Positions 2,696 through 60,977 of a stretch of 64,000 nt of DNA are shown here, piece by piece. A program made the translations under genes and the position numbers. Source of the DNA: Alphaproteobacteria bacterium (GTDB taxonomy: Bacteria; Pseudomonadota; Alphaproteobacteria; JAPOUT01; G958296285); NCBI GenBank assembly GCA_965212075.1, contig OZ243043.1, positions 158,797 to 222,796 on the forward strand, in the 5' to 3' direction. Numbering within the stretch: the stretch's first letter is position 1; every line of letters begins with the position of its first letter. A model generated the notes under the pieces. The model saw only the letters and a program-made list of their open reading frames with translations. It was not told where the DNA came from and searched no databases.

Positions 2696-3264
2696 TGAGG
2701 GGTGAATGATTGCAAAATCTTCTTTGTGCGTAAAGCGCAGATGACGGTGTTTATAATGTGCTCACTTGGACGGGTCGCGTCTAGGGTGATATTGGCTTCT
2801 TGATAGTGAGGCTCGCGCAGCGCGAGCAATTGGCTCACAATAGCATGTTTATCGCCATCGGCAAGAAGCGGGCGCTTGTTTGGTTTGGCTTCGATGCGGG
2901 CGGATAGGAGCGCGGGCGGGGCTTTGAGCCAGATCGTCACGGCTTTTTGCCTGAGAAGCACGCGGGTGGCTGGATTATCCAGCGCGCCGCCGCCTAGGGC
3001 GATCACACCGGCTGACGGCGCTTGGATCAGATCGGCCACAATGTCTGCCTCAAGTGCACGAAATCGCGGCTCGCCCTTTTGGGAGAAAATTTGCGCCACC
3101 GAGAGGCCGGTTTGCGCTTCAATCACCTCGTCGCTATCGGCGAAGGAGAGGCCAAGATGGCGGGCGAGCGCACGTCCGATCGTGGTTTTGCCTGATCCCA
3201 TCATGCCGACCAGCACGACAGGCCGCAGCAGCTTCGCCTTCATATTTTTGATATTTTTTGCCAT
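2692..3264 (-). CDS. aroK: shikimate kinase
   Basis: 190 aa with the P-loop GMMGSGKTTIGR and a conserved DSD motif. It forms an operon with aroB. Confidence 0.9.
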   Translation of the reverse strand: MAKNIKNMKAKLLRPVVLVGMMGSGKTTIGRALARHLGLSFADSDEVIEAQTGLSVAQIFSQKGEPRFRALEADIVADLIQAPSAGVIALGGGALDNPATRVLLRQKAVTIWLKAPPALLSARIEAKPNKRPLLADGDKHAIVSQLLALREPHYQEANITLDATRPSEHIINTVICALRTKKILQSFTPQ

Positions 3265-3291
3265 CTCGTTTATTCTTGGCTAAGTTTCCTT

Positions 3292-3426
3292 ATGCTGCGT
3301 TTTATTAAAATCACCCTTTTGACCACTTTGGCGATTCTGCTTTTCGGATTGGTTTATCTGCAAGCGATGGATCCGCCACAGCGCCAAATCAACAAAATCG
3401 TGCCCAATGAGAAATTATTACAATAG
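3292..3426 (+). CDS. possible small membrane protein (44 aa)
   Basis: Hand translation gives ATG at 3292, MLRFIKITLLTTLAILLFGLVYLQAMDPPQRQINKIVPNEKLLQ and TAG at 3424-3426. It has one hydrophobic helix and overlaps the start of the next ORF by 20 nt. It is below the ORF-track length cutoff and there is no homology evidence. Confidence 0.2.
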   Translation: MLRFIKITLLTTLAILLFGLVYLQAMDPPQRQINKIVPNEKLLQ

Positions 3427-5188
3427 GAATATTAGGAATATCCATGATATTCATCATATCAATATCAGGCGCTGTGTAGAATGCTTTGGCGTTTTGATTT
3501 TGGCGCTGTTTGTTGGCGAAAACACGCTTTGGGCGGCGCCGCGGGATACTTTGCCGCCCGGTTTTCACTCCAAGCCGCTTTTGCAGCCAAAATATGAGCC
3601 TAACCCCGATGAGGACGAACCTTCTGATGACAAAGCCGCGGCGCAAGATGCGGCCACAGATTCGATTACTTTTTTGCCTCTGATTGAAAAAGAGCTTCTC
3701 TTGCCGCCGAAGACCGGCCTGCTTTATGACGAGGAAGGTTTGGGTGAGGAGATTTGGCAGGAAGGCGATTTAGATACGATCATGAGTTTGATGGATACAT
3801 GGCGCGTTAAATTGCGCTCTCGGCCTGTGGCTGATCTTGCGCGGCGGCTTTTGCTGACTCACGCCAGCGAGCCTTTGGGCATAAATCCTTTTGACTTTAT
3901 GAAAGTCAGGCTGACCAAAATATACCAGATGGGTGATGTGGCGGCTCTGAAGAAATTTTTTGTGCGTTTTCCTGTTTTGTCATTGGATAAAAGCTTTTCG
4001 CTGCTGCATGAGCGTCAAGCATTTGCGCAGGGAATTCGTGATGGCCGCATTGTGGGCGAAGGCTGTGCTTTGTGGCGCGCCAACCGACAGCGTCCGCGTC
4101 AGGAAGACGATGTGCTCGTTCCGCCCGAGCCGATTGAACAGCAGATCACAGCTTTATGTTTGGGCTTTTCGGGCCAGATTGGGCGCTCTTTATCGGAAGC
4201 TGAAAATCTAAGCGATACAGGCCGCGCGCCGCGGGAGTTTTTTACTTTGTTAGCGGCGGCTTTGGGGTCAAAGACGAAAATAAGAGATAGTTCTTCTGTA
4301 GAATCATCTACGCCGCAGGAGATCAATTCTGTGCTGTGGTCGCTCTACAAGCTGGTGAGAAGGCAGCCGAGATATATTTATCTTGATCGCGTTGAGGCGG
4401 TGCTTTTGCCCTATATGGCGCGTGATGAATCATTGACTTATAATTGGCGTCTGGCCGCCGCCCAGCGCGCGATGCTGCATGGGTTGATTCCCCCGCGTTT
4501 TTTGCAGAGCTTTTATCGCGCTCGTGGCCGTCAAGATTTTGCGCGCCCGCCATCGCGAAGCTCCAAGCAGGAGCGCAGCGCGAATGTTGATCGCACACAA
4601 GTGCGAAAAATTTCTAATATTCTCGCCACAGCGCCCAATCGCATGGCTTATATTGCTTTTTTGCATAGCTGGGCGCGCGACATTGCGTTTTTAGATCTTC
4701 GCAGCGGCCATAGCCGCTTAAATGGCTTGCGCGCGTCTCTTTTGCTGAATCAGCAAGCGCGCATGAAAGTCTGGCTTGGCTCGCGGGGCGCATCAAATTT
4801 GCCGCTGCCGCTGCGCGCGATTTTGGCCGTATTAGAAGGCGCAAAAAGCTCGTCTCATCGCGGGATTGCGCCGCAGGCGATTGAAAGCTGGCGGCAAAGA
4901 ACCAACATGATCGTCAATGTCATCGGCAAGGAATTTTTCAACATAGACGCCGCCGACCTGCCCGACATTGATGACACCAAAGAAGGCGAGGCGCTCGTGC
5001 AGACGATAGAAAAAAAAGCGCGCGCCGAAATCATTTTGCGCGTGCTGGTGGGCATGGATAATGTCGCGCTTGCGCGCACGCCCTCTTTTTTGCGCGCGGT
5101 GATCCGCAGCTTGAACGCGATTGGCCTCAAAAAAGAAGCGTGGCGCATCGCGATTGATGTGTTTCTCATTGAGGCATGGGGGCCATAA
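3407..5188 (+). CDS. hypothetical secreted protein (593 aa) in the aroK-xerD interval
   Basis: This is a long ORF on the expected strand. The N-terminus looks like a signal peptide (basic stretch, then FGVLILALFVGENTLWA/AP). I recognise no family motif. Confidence 0.55.
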   Translation: MRNYYNRNIRNIHDIHHINIRRCVECFGVLILALFVGENTLWAAPRDTLPPGFHSKPLLQPKYEPNPDEDEPSDDKAAAQDAATDSITFLPLIEKELLLPPKTGLLYDEEGLGEEIWQEGDLDTIMSLMDTWRVKLRSRPVADLARRLLLTHASEPLGINPFDFMKVRLTKIYQMGDVAALKKFFVRFPVLSLDKSFSLLHERQAFAQGIRDGRIVGEGCALWRANRQRPRQEDDVLVPPEPIEQQITALCLGFSGQIGRSLSEAENLSDTGRAPREFFTLLAAALGSKTKIRDSSSVESSTPQEINSVLWSLYKLVRRQPRYIYLDRVEAVLLPYMARDESLTYNWRLAAAQRAMLHGLIPPRFLQSFYRARGRQDFARPPSRSSKQERSANVDRTQVRKISNILATAPNRMAYIAFLHSWARDIAFLDLRSGHSRLNGLRASLLLNQQARMKVWLGSRGASNLPLPLRAILAVLEGAKSSSHRGIAPQAIESWRQRTNMIVNVIGKEFFNIDAADLPDIDDTKEGEALVQTIEKKARAEIILRVLVGMDNVALARTPSFLRAVIRSLNAIGLKKEAWRIAIDVFLIEAWGP

Positions 5189-48239: not shown

Positions 48240-49367
48240 TTATTCGGCGGCGGAGAGGTTATCCATGGACAGATAGCGCGAAGATCCGCCATTGAGTCCG
48301 ATGAGATATTTGATGCCATCTTCGGCGATGTCATCGCCGACCATGCGATCGGTTTCATTATGTAGCTCTTTCATATCGATGAAGGCGGCATAATTGGCCG
48401 AAGTGCGCTCGGTGATGATTCCGGCTTTGAGCAGGGTTTTGATCAGCACGCGGAAGATGTAGGACGATCTCTGCATCTCATCGCGGATGACGTTATCGGT
48501 CATGGCTTCCATGAAGGCTTCCTGCACCCATTCCCAGTCGAGGCCGACTTGAGCGTAGATGTGTTGTTTCTGCTCGGGGCTGCCGAGGTTATAGAGGAGG
48601 ACATGGAACACTTCCCACGCCCAGTCTTCGATCATTGCGCGCTCTTGCTCGGGGAGGTGGGGGATGGTGCGATCGGCCCAGATTTTGCCGAATTTGTGAT
48701 GGAAGGCTTCGTCGGTCATGACGAGCTGGCAGAGTTTGCGCATGACGGGGTCATTGCCTCTTTCATAGAAGCTGGCGAAGGCGCCCATGGCGAGGCCTTC
48801 GATCATCATCTGCATGCCGACGAGCTTTTTCCAGACCAGCGGCGAGGCGACGATGTCTTTGAGCAGCCCGCCGAGTGCTGATCCGACTTGGCAAGGCTTG
48901 CCCCATCGCGCTTCCATATATTTGGAGAAGGCTGTGACATGGCGCGCTTCTTCGCGGGTTTGGTTGGCGGCATATTCTTGCGCGCCCGGGTCTTTGAGGA
49001 TGTGGCACAGGCTCGCCGAAAGCGCGAGCGCGCCCTGTTCGCCATGCAGGATGGACGAAAAGGACCAATGAACGCTGAGGTTGGTCAGCTTAATTTTCTG
49101 CTTCTCATCGAGCTTGTCGGCGACAGCGGTATGCAGTTCGCCGATCATCTCGGGGTCGGAGATATATTCATTCTCGAGATCAAAGGGCTTGGAGAAGTCG
49201 ATATATTTGGCGTCAAGCGGATCCCAGAAATGGTCGTGGGTCGCGGAGATGATTTTGTCAAAAGCCGTTGAGCGCTGCCCATAGCGATCCACTTCAATCA
49301 TGGCTTCAAAGTCATCGGGGGCGACGGCCTCATAGGCGCTGTCGATATTGATATGCTGCTCTGACAT
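48240..49367 (-). CDS. ferritin-like diiron protein (AurF-like oxygenase family)
   Basis: 375 aa with paired carboxylate/His motifs EQGALAL...REEARHVTAF and IEGLAMG...TDEAFHHKF, consistent with a diiron four-helix bundle. A strong RBS (AGGAGG) precedes the ATG. Confidence 0.65.
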   Translation of the reverse strand: MSEQHINIDSAYEAVAPDDFEAMIEVDRYGQRSTAFDKIISATHDHFWDPLDAKYIDFSKPFDLENEYISDPEMIGELHTAVADKLDEKQKIKLTNLSVHWSFSSILHGEQGALALSASLCHILKDPGAQEYAANQTREEARHVTAFSKYMEARWGKPCQVGSALGGLLKDIVASPLVWKKLVGMQMMIEGLAMGAFASFYERGNDPVMRKLCQLVMTDEAFHHKFGKIWADRTIPHLPEQERAMIEDWAWEVFHVLLYNLGSPEQKQHIYAQVGLDWEWVQEAFMEAMTDNVIRDEMQRSSYIFRVLIKTLLKAGIITERTSANYAAFIDMKELHNETDRMVGDDIAEDGIKYLIGLNGGSSRYLSMDNLSAAE

Positions 49368-49743
49368 TTATATGCCTCCTATATATATGCTTGTTTGAGT
49401 GTTCTCCTCTTATGATAGGCGATTCTCGCGTGAGGGCAAGCAAAAAACGAGCCTTTAATCCACTGATAGAAAGAGATTTTTTATCCGTCATTCCTGCCTA
49501 GTTCCCACCGCGTCATCCCCGCGCCAGACTCGTCTGCGACAGACTCGCCTGTCAGCGGGAATCCAGTCAAATACATGAACCCCTTTTCATCGTCATCCCC
49601 GCGAAGGAGGAAATAACGGCGCTAGCGCGCCGTTCGTGGCCTCCCCGCTTACTTCCCACCGCGTCATTCCCGCGACAGACCTGTCTGACGGCGGGAATCC
49701 AGTTAAATATAAACCATTCTAAAATTAACGGCGCGAAAGCGCC

Positions 49744-49822
49744 GTCATTCCCGCGAAGGCGGGAATCCAGTGAAATATGAATCGTGATTGCAAGCCGCCA
49801 ATAGCGGCGCAGCAATCTCAAA
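49744..49822 (+). repeat. 79-bp direct repeat, copy 1 (left flank of the GIY-YIG gene)
   Basis: gtcattcccgcgaaggcgggaatccagtgaaatatgaatcgtgattgcaagccgccaatagcggcgcagcaatctcaaa. It is identical to 50305-50383 except for one base (atAgcgg versus atGgcgg). Confidence 0.95.
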
Positions 49823-49840
49823 GTATAATCAAGCCCTATT

Positions 49841-50143
49841 ATGAAACAGCCCTGTGTATATATTCTCGCGAGCCATCACAACGGAACACTCTATGTCGGC
49901 GTCACATCCGATCTCATCAAACGTGTCGGGCAACATAGACAAGAGGAAACAGAAGGCTTTACCCAACAATATCAGGTCAAGCGGCTTGTCTGGTATGAGA
50001 TACATGACACAATGGAATCGGCAATCATCAGAGAAAAAGTCATCAAGAAATGGAATCGGAAATGGAAACTCAATTTGATAGAAATAGATAACCCCGATTG
50101 GCATGATTTATATTTGACTGGATTCCCGCCTTCGCGGGAATGA
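49841..50143 (+). CDS. GIY-YIG nuclease family protein (UPF0213/YhbQ-like)
   Basis: 100 aa reading CVYILASHHNGTLYVGVTSDLIKRVGQHR...ESAIIREKVIKKWNRKWKLNLIE. The GIY and YVG motifs, Arg and Glu are present. The last 9 codons (LTGFPPSRE) and the stop lie inside an inverted REP-like element. Confidence 0.85.
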   Translation: MKQPCVYILASHHNGTLYVGVTSDLIKRVGQHRQEETEGFTQQYQVKRLVWYEIHDTMESAIIREKVIKKWNRKWKLNLIEIDNPDWHDLYLTGFPPSRE

Positions 50144-50304
50144 CGGCGCTGGCGCGCCGTTTTTCATCGTCATCCCCACGACAGGCTCGCCTGCGACAGG
50201 CTCGCCTCTAGAGGTTTGTCTGTCAGCGGGGATCCAGTGATTTTGAACCGCCCAATGTAAGCCACCCGATTGCGGTTAAAATTCCGCCGTTCTTCTTTTC
50301 CGTC

Positions 50305-50383
50305 GTCATTCCCGCGAAGGCGGGAATCCAGTGAAATATGAATCGTGATTGCAAGCCGCCAATGGCGGCGCAGCAATCTCAAA
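50305..50383 (+). repeat. 79-bp direct repeat, copy 2 (right flank of the GIY-YIG gene, abutting the amidase stop)
   Basis: See copy 1. The two copies are offset by exactly 561 bp. Confidence 0.95.
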
Positions 50384-50384
50384 T

Positions 50385-51815
50385 TTACGCAAGCCGGTCA
50401 AACAGAGCGGGGTAGCGATCGGCCCAAGGGTGTGCCTCCTCCAACTGCGCGGCGAGTTGAAACAAAATCGCCTCGTCGCCGAAGCGCGCGGTGAACATGA
50501 CGCCGATCGGCAGGCCGTCATCGCTCCAGCACAAAGGCACCGACATCGCAGGCTGGCCGGTCATATTGGCAAGGCCGGTATAAGGCATGATCTCGCGGTG
50601 AAGGTCATTAAACCGATCAACATCCTCGCTCATCGTATCGATCGTGCCCAGCGCGAAGTTTTTGACCCCGAACACCGGACAGAGATAGAGGTCATAGGTT
50701 TGGTGAAAGGCGGCGACGCGGCGGCCCAGCGCGTGGATAAAGTTCACGGCGCGGACATAGTCTTCGCCGCTGGTTTTGCGGCCCCATTCGGCGATGCGCC
50801 ATGTAGCGCGTTCCACTTCGCTCTCGTCGATTGGTCGCGCGCGCGCCTCGCCGGTCTGCGCGAGCGTGAGCGCGACATTGACGCCGATCAAATTGATCTG
50901 GTGGAAGCCCATCTCCTGCGGATTGAGCTCTGGCGCGGCCTCTTCAATATGATGGCCGAGCGCCTCGCAATGTTTTGCGGCCTGCTGGATTGCGCGGATG
51001 GTGTCTTGATCGGGCTGGCTGCCATCGCCGCGCTTTGTGTTGAAGGCGATGCGCAAGGGTTTCGGTTTTATTTTCATTTCGTCAAGGAAGGGTCGTTGCG
51101 GTGTCGGCGCGTGATAGGGGTCGCCGAGCGCGGGCGCGCAGGTGGCGTCGAGGGCGGCGGCGCTGTCGCGCACCGAGCGCGACACGACATGATTGCACGA
51201 CATGCCTGCCCAGCCTTCGCCGCGATCGGGTGCCATCGAGACGCGCGCGCGGGTGGGTTTGATGCCGAACAGGCCGCAGGCGGCGGCCGGCAGACGAATG
51301 GAGCCGCCGCCATCGCTGGCATGGGCGAGCGGCACGATCCCCGCCGCGACCGCCGCCGCCGCGCCGCCGCTTGATCCGCCCGGAGACAGGTCAAACTGCC
51401 AAGGATTTTTTGTTGCGCCATATTTATGCGGCTCGGTTGTTCCGGTCAGGCCGAATTCGGGCGAGTTGGTTTTGCCGAAAATGACAAAACCGGCTTTGAT
51501 GTAGCGCTCAACGAGCGCGCTGTGATGATCGGCGATGAGGTCTTTAAAGATTTCGGTGCTGGAATCGGTGATTGTGTCTTTGAACATCACGTGGAGATTT
51601 TTCAGCAGAAAGGGGACGCCGCCAAACGGCCCGAAAGGATTTTGTCGGGCGGTGTCGCGGGCGACATCATCGTGGCGCATAACGATCGCGTTCAACTTGG
51701 GATTGAGCCGGTCAGCGAGGGCGAGCGCGGCATCAAGCGCTTCGCTGGCGCTGATCTCGCGCTTCTGGATGGCCGCGGCGAGTCCCAGCCCATCAAATTT
51801 GATATAATCCTCCAT
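50385..51815 (-). CDS. amidase (amidase-signature family)
   Basis: 476 aa with the AS motif GGSSGGAAAAVAAGIVPLAHASDGGGSIRLPAAACGLFGIKPT. Confidence 0.85.
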   Translation of the reverse strand: MEDYIKFDGLGLAAAIQKREISASEALDAALALADRLNPKLNAIVMRHDDVARDTARQNPFGPFGGVPFLLKNLHVMFKDTITDSSTEIFKDLIADHHSALVERYIKAGFVIFGKTNSPEFGLTGTTEPHKYGATKNPWQFDLSPGGSSGGAAAAVAAGIVPLAHASDGGGSIRLPAAACGLFGIKPTRARVSMAPDRGEGWAGMSCNHVVSRSVRDSAAALDATCAPALGDPYHAPTPQRPFLDEMKIKPKPLRIAFNTKRGDGSQPDQDTIRAIQQAAKHCEALGHHIEEAAPELNPQEMGFHQINLIGVNVALTLAQTGEARARPIDESEVERATWRIAEWGRKTSGEDYVRAVNFIHALGRRVAAFHQTYDLYLCPVFGVKNFALGTIDTMSEDVDRFNDLHREIMPYTGLANMTGQPAMSVPLCWSDDGLPIGVMFTARFGDEAILFQLAAQLEEAHPWADRYPALFDRLA

Positions 51816-59972: not shown

Positions 59973-60977
59973 TTAAATCAGCGCGCCGAGTTTTTTGGCG
60001 ACGTCGATCATGCGATTGGCGAACCCCCATTCATTATCATACCACGCTAAGACGCGCACGAGATTTTTTTCAATGACATTAGTTTGCGTGAGATCGGCGA
60101 TGGCGGAGGCGCGGTGATGATTAAAATCAACTGAGACGAGCGGCAGTTCATTGATCGCGAGCACTTTTTTGAGTTTGCCGCCCGCCGCTTTGGCGAGGGC
60201 GTTATTTATTTCTTCAATGCTGGTATTTTTTTCGGACTGGATCACGAGGTCAATGAGCGAGACGTTGGGCGTTGGGACGCGCAGGGCGCATCCGGCGATT
60301 TTACCGGCGAGTTCGGGCATGACGAGCGCGATGGCTTTGGCCGCGCCGGTGGAGGTGGGAATGATGGACGCCGCCGCCGTGCGCGCGCGCCGCGGGTCTT
60401 GATGTGCGACGTCAAGGATTGATTGATCGCTGGTATAGGCGTGAATGGTCGTCATATGGCCGTGTTTGATGCCGCACGTCTCATGCAGCACCATGGCGAC
60501 GGGTGCGAGGCAGTTGGTCGTGCAGGATGCGTTGGAGATCACGCCGTGATTTTTGTTCAGTATGCTGTCATTGACGCCAAAGACGATGGTCGCATCAGCA
60601 TTGCCTGAAGGTCCGGAGATCAAAACTTTTTTTGCGCCCGCTTCAAGATGGGCTTGAGCTTTTTGGCGATCGGTGAAGATGCCGGTGGCTTCAAGCACGA
60701 CATCTACGTCAAGCTCTTTCCATGGCAATTTTGCCGGATCGCGCTCGCGCAGAGATTTGATCTGATGTCCGGCGACATGAAGCTCTCCGTTTTGTTTTTC
60801 AACCGGAAAAGGCAGAGGGCCATGGGTTGAATCATGCTGGAGCAGATGCGCATTGATGTTGGTGTCGCCCAGATCGTTGATGGCGACGCAGCGCAGATTT
60901 TGCTCCTGCGCCTCTAAGGCGGCGCGCAAGCTCAACCGGCCAATCCGGCCAAATCCATTGATGGCGATGCGCAGCAT
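59973..60977 (-). CDS. gap: type I glyceraldehyde-3-phosphate dehydrogenase
   Basis: 334 aa with INGFGRIGRL, the active site SNASCTTNCLAP, and WYDNEWGF. Confidence 0.95.
   Translation of the reverse strand: MLRIAINGFGRIGRLSLRAALEAQEQNLRCVAINDLGDTNINAHLLQHDSTHGPLPFPVEKQNGELHVAGHQIKSLRERDPAKLPWKELDVDVVLEATGIFTDRQKAQAHLEAGAKKVLISGPSGNADATIVFGVNDSILNKNHGVISNASCTTNCLAPVAMVLHETCGIKHGHMTTIHAYTSDQSILDVAHQDPRRARTAAASIIPTSTGAAKAIALVMPELAGKIAGCALRVPTPNVSLIDLVIQSEKNTSIEEINNALAKAAGGKLKKVLAINELPLVSVDFNHHRASAIADLTQTNVIEKNLVRVLAWYDNEWGFANRMIDVAKKLGALI

Follow-up and report, generated by a model that had tools for sequence, protein, structure and literature searches.

A probable Ssn-NTS system, a small GIY-YIG nuclease gene among NTS-type hairpins, in a hypervariable intergenic insertion of an alphaproteobacterium

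Contig OZ243043.1 of an alphaproteobacterial genome carries, between an AurF-like di-iron gene (48240-49367, minus strand) and an amidase gene (50385-51815, minus strand), an array of palindromic repeats (~49486-50383) that encloses a small gene for a GIY-YIG nuclease, herein called ssn (49841-50143, plus strand). Coordinates refer to the whole stretch of DNA analysed, a window of 64 kb, and all counts of palindromes and related motifs given for the window cover these 64 kb of the genome. The product of ssn, the only credible gene in the array, has 100 amino acids (aa) and matched GIY-YIG and no other domain in a Pfam search (PF01541, E 2.9e-18, residues 4-78), in agreement with a first-pass annotation of this DNA. 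One oriented palindrome recurs around the gene, with six copies complete and two degenerate. Its left arm, GTCATYCCCRC, had nine matches with at most one mismatch, eight of them within 49487-50315 and the ninth, with one mismatch, outside the array at position 60355. The complete form, ATYCCCRC-loop-GYGGGRAT, occurred at 49515-49562, 49666-49698, 49747-49766, 50122-50141 (inverted), 50172-50233 and 50308-50327 (copies A, C, D, E, F and G, respectively), with loops of 4, 17, 32 or 46 nucleotides (nt) between the 8-nt arms. The first-pass annotation had counted at least seven copies, which holds for the arms (eight) but not for complete palindromes (six), and its loop range, from GAAG to about 45 nt, agrees with these lengths.

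A full-text literature search with the palindrome as a DNA string led to the study of Chenal et al. (Nat Commun 2025, PMC11893778), and literature searches for later work on Ssn found only this paper. Searches of the literature on GIY-YIG enzymes (COG2827) in connection with REP-type elements or palindromes gave no relevant result. It describes a 28-nt Neisseria Transformation Sequence (NTS; CGTCATTCCCGCGMAVGCGGGAATCYRG), which extends the classical dRS3 repeat ATTCCC-N8-GGGAAT, and SsnA, a 94-aa GIY-YIG protein of N. meningitidis (NMV_0044/NMB0047; cd10448, GIY-YIG_unchar_3). SsnA binds the NTS hairpin in single-stranded DNA (ssDNA) only, and on that strand only, and cuts a few nucleotides 5' of the NTS, cleavage being abolished by Y6A, Y17A and E64A (PMC11893778). 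A degenerate motif, SRM, was reported near 71% of the homologue genes, and on both sides of the gene in 42% (PMC11893778).

In our window, three 28-mers are identical to each other and match the NTS consensus at 28 of 28 positions, namely NTS D (CGTCATTCCCGCGAAGGCGGGAATCCAG; 49743-49770, plus strand), which lies upstream of ssn and on the strand of the gene, NTS E (50118-50145, minus strand) and NTS G (50304-50331, plus strand). The layout is one of three canonical NTS, two of which flank ssn in inverted orientation (NTS-ssn-NTS), plus longer-loop and decayed variants. The inverted copy E contributes the last codons of ssn (TGFPPSRE) and its stop, as the first-pass annotation had read it. The published SRM pattern matched three times in the window, each time in the array, and the cluster is not a product of chance, because only 0.19 matches were expected from Markov simulations. 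The dRS3-type 20-mer was exact at 49747, 50122 and 50308.

The Ssn family was delimited in PMC11893778 by blastp matches with E < 1e-10 over at least 75% of the query, and we checked homology against a gonococcal orthologue standing in for N. meningitidis SsnA (CAX49033.1). This direct comparison with a Neisseria SsnA was possible because gonococcal chromosomes are mislabelled as plasmids: NZ_CP119140.1 (L089) and NZ_CP119142.1 are 2.17-Mb Neisseria gonorrhoeae chromosomes, almost unannotated, that are filed as such. Compared with the 94-aa protein encoded at L089 1498-1782, the window protein shows 64% identity over 90 aa (E 1e-43), which places it inside the family, and tblastn against L089 found this single place (E 5e-32). 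The gonococcal protein carries Y6, Y17 and E64, and NTS copies flank its gene, too; Y7, Y18 and E65 of the window protein align to these residues with the same spacing and are invariant in an alignment of 17 sequences. The other traits of the family are likewise present, i.e., a single-domain GIY-YIG protein of less than 150 aa and SRM/NTS matches within 500 bp on both sides of the gene, one (49743-49770, plus) 71 nt upstream and one (50118-50145, minus) over the stop. By homology, the window protein would thus be expected to bind and cut NTS in ssDNA only and with the specificity for strand, sequence and structure that homologues display.

Homologues of the window protein are numerous, with at least 7,989 significant matches among 8,000 candidates scored, 60-79% identical and from very different phyla. 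They often carry heads or tails translated from the palindrome (TGFPPSRE, VIPAKAGIQ, DSRFHGNDG), and the TGFPPSRE tail of the window protein also occurs in homologues from unrelated taxa. An NCBIfam search gave no specific model for the protein, and its best matches among solved structures in a PDB sequence search were marginal (UvrC, E 0.009; BH0048, E 0.044).

The association of gene and palindrome was assessed in 80 homologue loci from GTDB species genomes, which include Beta-, Gamma-, Alpha- and Deltaproteobacteria, Planctomycetes, Dehalococcoidia, Anaerolineae, Nitrospirota, NC10 and one cyanobacterium. With a simple oriented pattern, a palindrome was found within -400/+300 nt of the gene in 65 of the 80 loci, at a density of 3.63 per kb within 200 nt of the gene vs 0.12 per kb further out. 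The published SRM pattern matched within 500 bp of the gene in 74 of the 80 loci and on both sides in 45, with 2.46 matches per kb near the gene vs 0.13 further out. Palindromes are hence enriched beside ssn homologues from ~19-fold (SRM) to ~30-fold (simple pattern), so that the enrichment next to GIY-YIG genes for which the first-pass annotation had asked is present and the distribution is not random. In the commonest layout, a copy on the same strand stops 10-12 nt short of the start codon, and an inverted one lies at or over the stop codon. Variants of the stem covary (CCCGC/GCGGG, CCGGC/GCCGG, ACCGGC/GCCGGT), which fits a requirement for the hairpin.

Judged on these sequence comparisons, it is highly probable that gene and array constitute an Ssn-NTS system, that is, a small GIY-YIG ssDNA nuclease encoded among its target hairpins. 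The pairing of enzyme and palindrome that the first-pass annotation had likened to REP elements and RAYT transposases was a sound idea, demonstrated experimentally for homologues, although it is not new: the concept was already published in 2025 (PMC11893778), and the locus is another case in another host. The agreement with Neisseria extends to the single-domain GIY-YIG protein of ~95 aa, the catalytic spacing, the flanking 28-mer equal to the NTS consensus and the inverted NTS-ssn-NTS order. Differences lie in the host, here a Parvibaculaceae-like alphaproteobacterium with a small genome (1.6-Mb contig), in a 9-aa C-terminal extension of the protein that is encoded by the NTS, and in the array itself, which adds variants with long loops of 17-46 nt and a GC hairpin that abuts the NTS; the published NTS and SRM patterns cover neither.

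This second hairpin, ACGGCGC-N4-GCGCCGT, starts at 49616, 49728 and 50143, three copies as noted in the first-pass annotation. Copy 1 (49616-49633, plus) has the loop TAGC. Copy 2 (49728-49745, plus) overlaps with its 3' arm the CGT that starts NTS D, and the overlap falls in the zone cut by Ssn homologues (PMC11893778). Copy 3 (50143-50160, plus) is followed by TTTTT on the plus strand and looks like a terminator for ssn; a consensus terminator and promoter scan called nothing within the array, including this hairpin. As a general partner of the NTS the second hairpin was rejected, a perfect hairpin abutting 5 of the 281 NTS-like cores counted over all loci vs 14 at control positions.

On the AurF side the array begins with a degenerate NTS left arm (CGTCATTCCTGC; 49486-49497, plus), a match with one mismatch. 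It is followed by the NTS-like palindrome A (49511-49566 in full, plus; repeat and pattern searches), whose 32-nt loop holds two tandem units of ~15 nt (49521-49535 region), and by the degenerate NTS B (49591-49614, plus), found through repeat families D6 and D7 and the left-arm search, which retains its left arm in full, the right one being degraded to GGAGGAAAT. Palindrome C (49662-49702 in full, plus) is an extended hairpin with a 17-nt insert, and palindrome F (50168-50237 in full, plus) has the 46-nt loop. The spacers between the palindromes are themselves repeated and form direct-repeat families D2 to D7 according to the repeat finder.

Two larger repeats frame the gene. The direct repeat, given as 79 bp in the first-pass annotation, is present at the offset of 561 reported there but measures 83 nt (49740-49822 vs 50301-50383, plus, 98% identical). 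Its first copy consists of NTS D and a 52-nt ssn leader with a hairpin of its own (49786-49817), and its second copy, NTS G plus leader, ends one base before the amidase stop codon (50385-50387). Copy 2 looks like the 5' stump of a second cassette. In addition, a 60-nt inverted repeat (49727-49786 and 50102-50161, 92% complementary), missed in the first-pass annotation, directly brackets ssn.

Translated on the opposite strand (49748-49786 and 50309-50347, minus), the 18 nt after NTS copies D and G give HDSYFTGFPPSR, which is identical at 11 of 13 positions to the Ssn C-terminus HDLYLTGFPPSRE. The solo copies D and G look like fossils of an inverted ssn 3' end; alternatively, the inverted repeat extends into coding sequence. 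Open reading frames (ORFs) of 43-84 aa that translate the palindromes lie on the minus strand at 49567-49821, 50170-50382, 50223-50354 and 50306-50521. The peptides in the ORFs of the array include DSRLRGNDG, WIPAFAGMT and TGFPPSRE, bearing out the RGNDG/WIPAFAGMT type that the first-pass annotation had recognized, and gene callers are likely to report such ORFs as hypothetical proteins.

When folded as ssDNA, the canonical palindrome reached -8.9 kcal/mol (z -3.1 vs shuffles), palindrome C -11.1 kcal/mol (z -3.3) and the leader hairpin -11.6 kcal/mol (z -4.1), and the GC hairpin and palindrome together (copy 2 plus NTS D) reached -19 kcal/mol (z about -5.8 to -5.9). The loop of palindrome A, with two units in the window, has only one in L087, a near-identical strain described below, and loop length therefore changes by gain or loss of units; with a single unit, palindrome A forms a nearly perfect extended hairpin of ~15 bp.

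The AurF-like protein, whose named matches at 76-77% identity are Parvibaculaceae or Parvibaculum, places the organism near this family. The amidase and AurF-like genes of L088 (AurF 87% identical) and L091 (86%) are neighbours, separated by 136 and 120 bp, respectively, and without NTS or ssn, whereas L092 (83%) has different upstream genes and is also without both. The sequence AAAAAATCYYTTTYTATCAG directly follows the amidase stop in L091 and follows the array in the window. The array is therefore an insertion of ~49486-50383, its AurF-side boundary at ~49485/49486 being given by the empty sites of L088 and L091; these edges coincide with the limits drawn in the first-pass annotation. At the empty site of L088 (3860-3890) the last ~15 nt of the amidase gene are repeated after its stop (GAGCGGTTGGCATAA), a small duplication. 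The L088 genome does carry an ssn, 79% identical and the closest Ssn found, several kb away on the same contig, where it sits between a polyA-polymerase-type gene and coproporphyrinogen oxidase amid NTS-like copies and the GC hairpin. That locus, sought as a reciprocal empty site, is not in the 64-kb window.

Near-identical strains (L086, L087 and L090, AurF 97-98% identical) have a different spacer each time. L087 (98%) keeps A, B and one long-loop copy and is without window 49677-50189 (513 bp), a segment made up of the right half of C, hairpin, NTS D, leader, ssn, NTS E, hairpin and the left half of F. The single long-loop copy of L087 combines a C-like with an F-like side, and both breakpoints of the indel therefore lie inside NTS copies, the left one in C, where L087 homology stops at 49676-49678, and the right one in F; on the far side, L087 3678-3739 matches window 50251-50190 at 93.5%. 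Beside the amidase stop, L087 has an unrelated segment of 36% GC (2716-3690) with flanks 93-96% identical and two small hydrophobic ORFs of 182 and 111 aa, a filler that looks like foreign DNA captured beside the NTS array. L086 has another filler, of 40% GC (region of L086 2050-2240 and 2934-3852), and only the last 71 nt of the amidase gene are left; a second NTS-like cluster lies ~800 bp further out. The ORFs of the L086 and L087 fillers had no Pfam match. In L090 (97%), window position 49523 is joined to 50291 and the sequence continues through direct repeat copy 2 (100% over 93 nt) straight into ssn, from which it follows that the 83-nt repeat (NTS plus leader) is the true 5' region of the ssn cassette. 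The array is thus a lineage-specific, hypervariable insertion. The comparison of the intergenic region in relatives that the first-pass annotation had proposed accordingly revealed a cassette that is not fixed and a repeat-bounded polymorphism among close strains. The 561-bp unit itself was not established as a mobile cassette, the clean indel against L087 being one of 513 bp (49677-50189) between two other palindrome copies, C and F.

In the mechanism that we propose, DNA would become single-stranded during replication, repair or uptake, and Ssn would bind the NTS hairpin on the CGTCAT...ATCCAG strand and nick it a few nucleotides on the 5' side. The array between the amidase and AurF-like genes would be a recombination-prone insertion, the content of which is replaced from strain to strain through breakage and rejoining at NTS copies. 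We infer this turnover from the strain comparison, and Ssn may be the breaker. The array as a whole, both direct repeats and the L087 indel all have their left edges at or in NTS copies, which fits breaks at NTS sites; recombination between short repeats fits equally well. The recognized strand is the plus strand in five of the six complete and in both degenerate copies, and GC skew on the plus strand is positive over the 64 kb. A strand of positive GC skew is usually read as the lagging-strand template, and the same bias is known for IS200/IS605 and REP elements. As the bias comes from one cluster, we give it little weight. GC skew on the plus strand ranges from +0.07 to +0.13 over the whole window (1-64000), and the genes around the array are on the minus strand.

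Several points weigh against an Ssn-NTS system at this locus. The abundance of NTS is known for 64 kb of this genome only. The two copies with the longest loops, A (z -0.76) and F, fold no better than shuffles and may for this reason not be Ssn substrates, four copies (loops 17-46 nt) are outside the published NTS and SRM definitions, and the second hairpin would hide the position where cutting is expected within a stem. The differences between strains could come from ordinary or illegitimate recombination without Ssn. Lastly, in six loci (L024, L028, L032, L049, L063 and L069; Sideroxydans, Gallionellaceae, Nitrosomonadales and related metagenome-assembled genomes), synteny at 75-85% nucleotide identity covers ssn and its flanks of 600 nt, which seems to reflect stable vertical inheritance in that clade.

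Among the alternatives, the one that fares best is a host system that restricts or tunes incoming or exposed ssDNA, as in natural transformation, the array varying because foreign DNA recombines with it at NTS sites. In its favour, the SsnA of N. meningitidis was directly shown by experiment to modulate natural transformation, the sole biological role shown so far for Ssn (PMC11893778). It would also account for four strains at 97-98% AurF identity (window, L086, L087 and L090) that differ in this one spacer, and for the unrelated AT-rich fillers (36-40% GC vs 55% in the window) that in two of them are bounded by shared NTS, like the NIME arrays of Neisseria beside variable genes. However, there is one array in 64 kb and no sign of hundreds of NTS framing many genes, and the role of Ssn outside Neisseria is called unknown in PMC11893778. 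We regard this explanation as a serious possibility, albeit one more doubtful than probable.

An autonomous selfish element, in which Ssn nicks ssDNA 5' of the NTS at both ends of a cassette that is then copied into, or transferred to, NTS sites elsewhere, appears unlikely, even though many features of the locus would suit it. The solo palindromes would then be non-autonomous derivatives or footprints, as REP/REPIN are for RAYT or as in IS200/IS605, and the fossil Ssn C-terminal codons on the opposite strand of NTS D and G point the same way. An inverted NTS pair brackets ssn here and at the majority of the 80 loci. The protein keeps 60-79% identity in Proteobacteria, Planctomycetes, Chloroflexi, Nitrospirota, NC10 and cyanobacteria, with many homologues on short contigs, and ssn occupies different loci in congeneric genomes, with an empty site at the present locus. 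Equally in line with it are the L087 breakpoints inside NTS copies and the position of the array and of both direct repeats, all of which have their left edge at the 5' border of an NTS, the place at which homologues of Ssn cleave. The permuted junction of L090 and the 1.15 tandem copies of the window would fit a tandem or circular intermediate. Against this, GIY-YIG nucleases hydrolyse DNA with no covalent intermediate, and Ssn alone cannot carry out strand transfer. The locus showed neither a target-site duplication nor a precise excision product, and no genome was found to have near-identical copies at several loci; the window contains ssn only once, and no identical copy of its product is on record on other contigs. 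The syntenic, apparently vertical ssn genes of Gallionellales/Nitrosomonadales, the absence of an Ssn homologue from 50,697 phage records and the location of nearly all plasmid-collection matches on non-mobilizable replicons are further arguments to the contrary. The idea itself is raised only as a hypothesis in PMC11893778, where NTS-ssn-NTS is likened to an insertion sequence and to RAYT/REP/BIME. That the nuclease mobilises the palindromes, as the first-pass annotation had considered, is not established.

That the palindromes are ordinary terminators or mRNA-stabilising REP elements beside which the GIY-YIG gene lies by chance is extremely improbable, for although the hairpin at 50143-50160 with its TTTTT is terminator-like and the array is placed between two gene ends, the 28-mer equals the NTS of Neisseria, the consensus scan called no terminator within the array, and the 19- to 30-fold enrichment in 80 loci of many phyla follows fixed rules of orientation and position. 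Chance co-occurrence of palindromes and a GIY-YIG gene is ruled out by the same 80-locus enrichment and NTS identity.

Apart from Neisseria Ssn, the Ssn-NTS system of the window has counterparts in several known systems. The dRS3/NIME arrays of Neisseria consist of ATTCCC-N8-GGGAAT separated by repeated RS units of 50-150 bp (PMC1797815); the window shares the 20-bp core three times (ATTCCCGCGAAGGCGGGAAT) and the repeated 50-150-bp spacers, a likeness of form only, as the family is defined in Neisseria, and in both cases the length and content of the array vary between strains next to conserved genes. In contrast to Neisseria, with hundreds of such elements genome-wide, the window has one small array in 64 kb, and no filamentous phage or IS110-type recombinase is near it. 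With REP/BIME-RAYT and IS200/IS605 it has in common a small nuclease gene flanked by inverted copies of an ssDNA hairpin and repeats that are oriented and clustered, whereas Ssn has the GIY-YIG and not the HUH/Y1 fold, and neither a covalent 5'-phosphotyrosine intermediate nor strand transfer is expected of it. Membership of RAYT was rejected, there being no Y1_Tnp and GIY-YIG being the sole Pfam match of the gene. The GIY-YIG core is shared with the N-terminal domain of UvrC, UPF0213 (BH0048, YhbQ), SLX1 and I-TevI; however, these act on double-stranded or branched DNA or carry extra DNA-binding domains, and the similarity is marginal.

A last parallel concerns the Francisella FtrB model (Rfam RF02748), the consensus of which has a short hairpin followed by GUCAUUCCCGCGUAGGCGGGAAUC, a composite of hairpin and NTS like that at window 49728-49770. 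An Rfam search of the array yielded nothing but weak matches to RF02748, at 49728-49780 and 50079-50160 (26 bits, E 0.04-0.06, against a gathering score of 66), but only the NTS part aligns, and FtrB was described as an RNA and not as a DNA repeat. The abutting second hairpin is a feature of this lineage and of the FtrB model, and FtrB may be the transcript of an Ssn-type repeat. The Northern probe of the original FtrB paper also contains GUCAUUCCCGCGUAGGCGGGAAUC, an NTS.

The elements that the window adds to the published Ssn-NTS system are the series of empty sites and strains, the NTS-bounded breakpoints, the tandem and permuted cassette, long-loop NTS outside the published motifs and a hairpin over the cut site. 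The long-loop variants and the hairpin over the expected cut site are ready substrates for studying the specificity of Ssn. A natural series is available in three empty sites of related species and four different fillings of near-identical strains, the breakpoints falling inside NTS copies; it could serve to test whether ssDNA breaks made by Ssn drive the turnover of the array. It is improbable, in our estimate, that the NTS-ssn-NTS cassette is a mobile unit that passes through a single-stranded, tandem or circular intermediate begun by Ssn cuts 5' of the NTS; under this reading the 561-bp unit with its 83-nt stump in the window, the permuted junction of L090 and the 513-bp loss in L087 would be its traces. 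The literature holds the mobile-element idea for NTS-ssn-NTS only as a hypothesis and calls the role of Ssn outside Neisseria unknown. If true, the cassette would be the first bacterial transposon-like element driven by a GIY-YIG nuclease and would explain the multiplication of NTS/dRS3.

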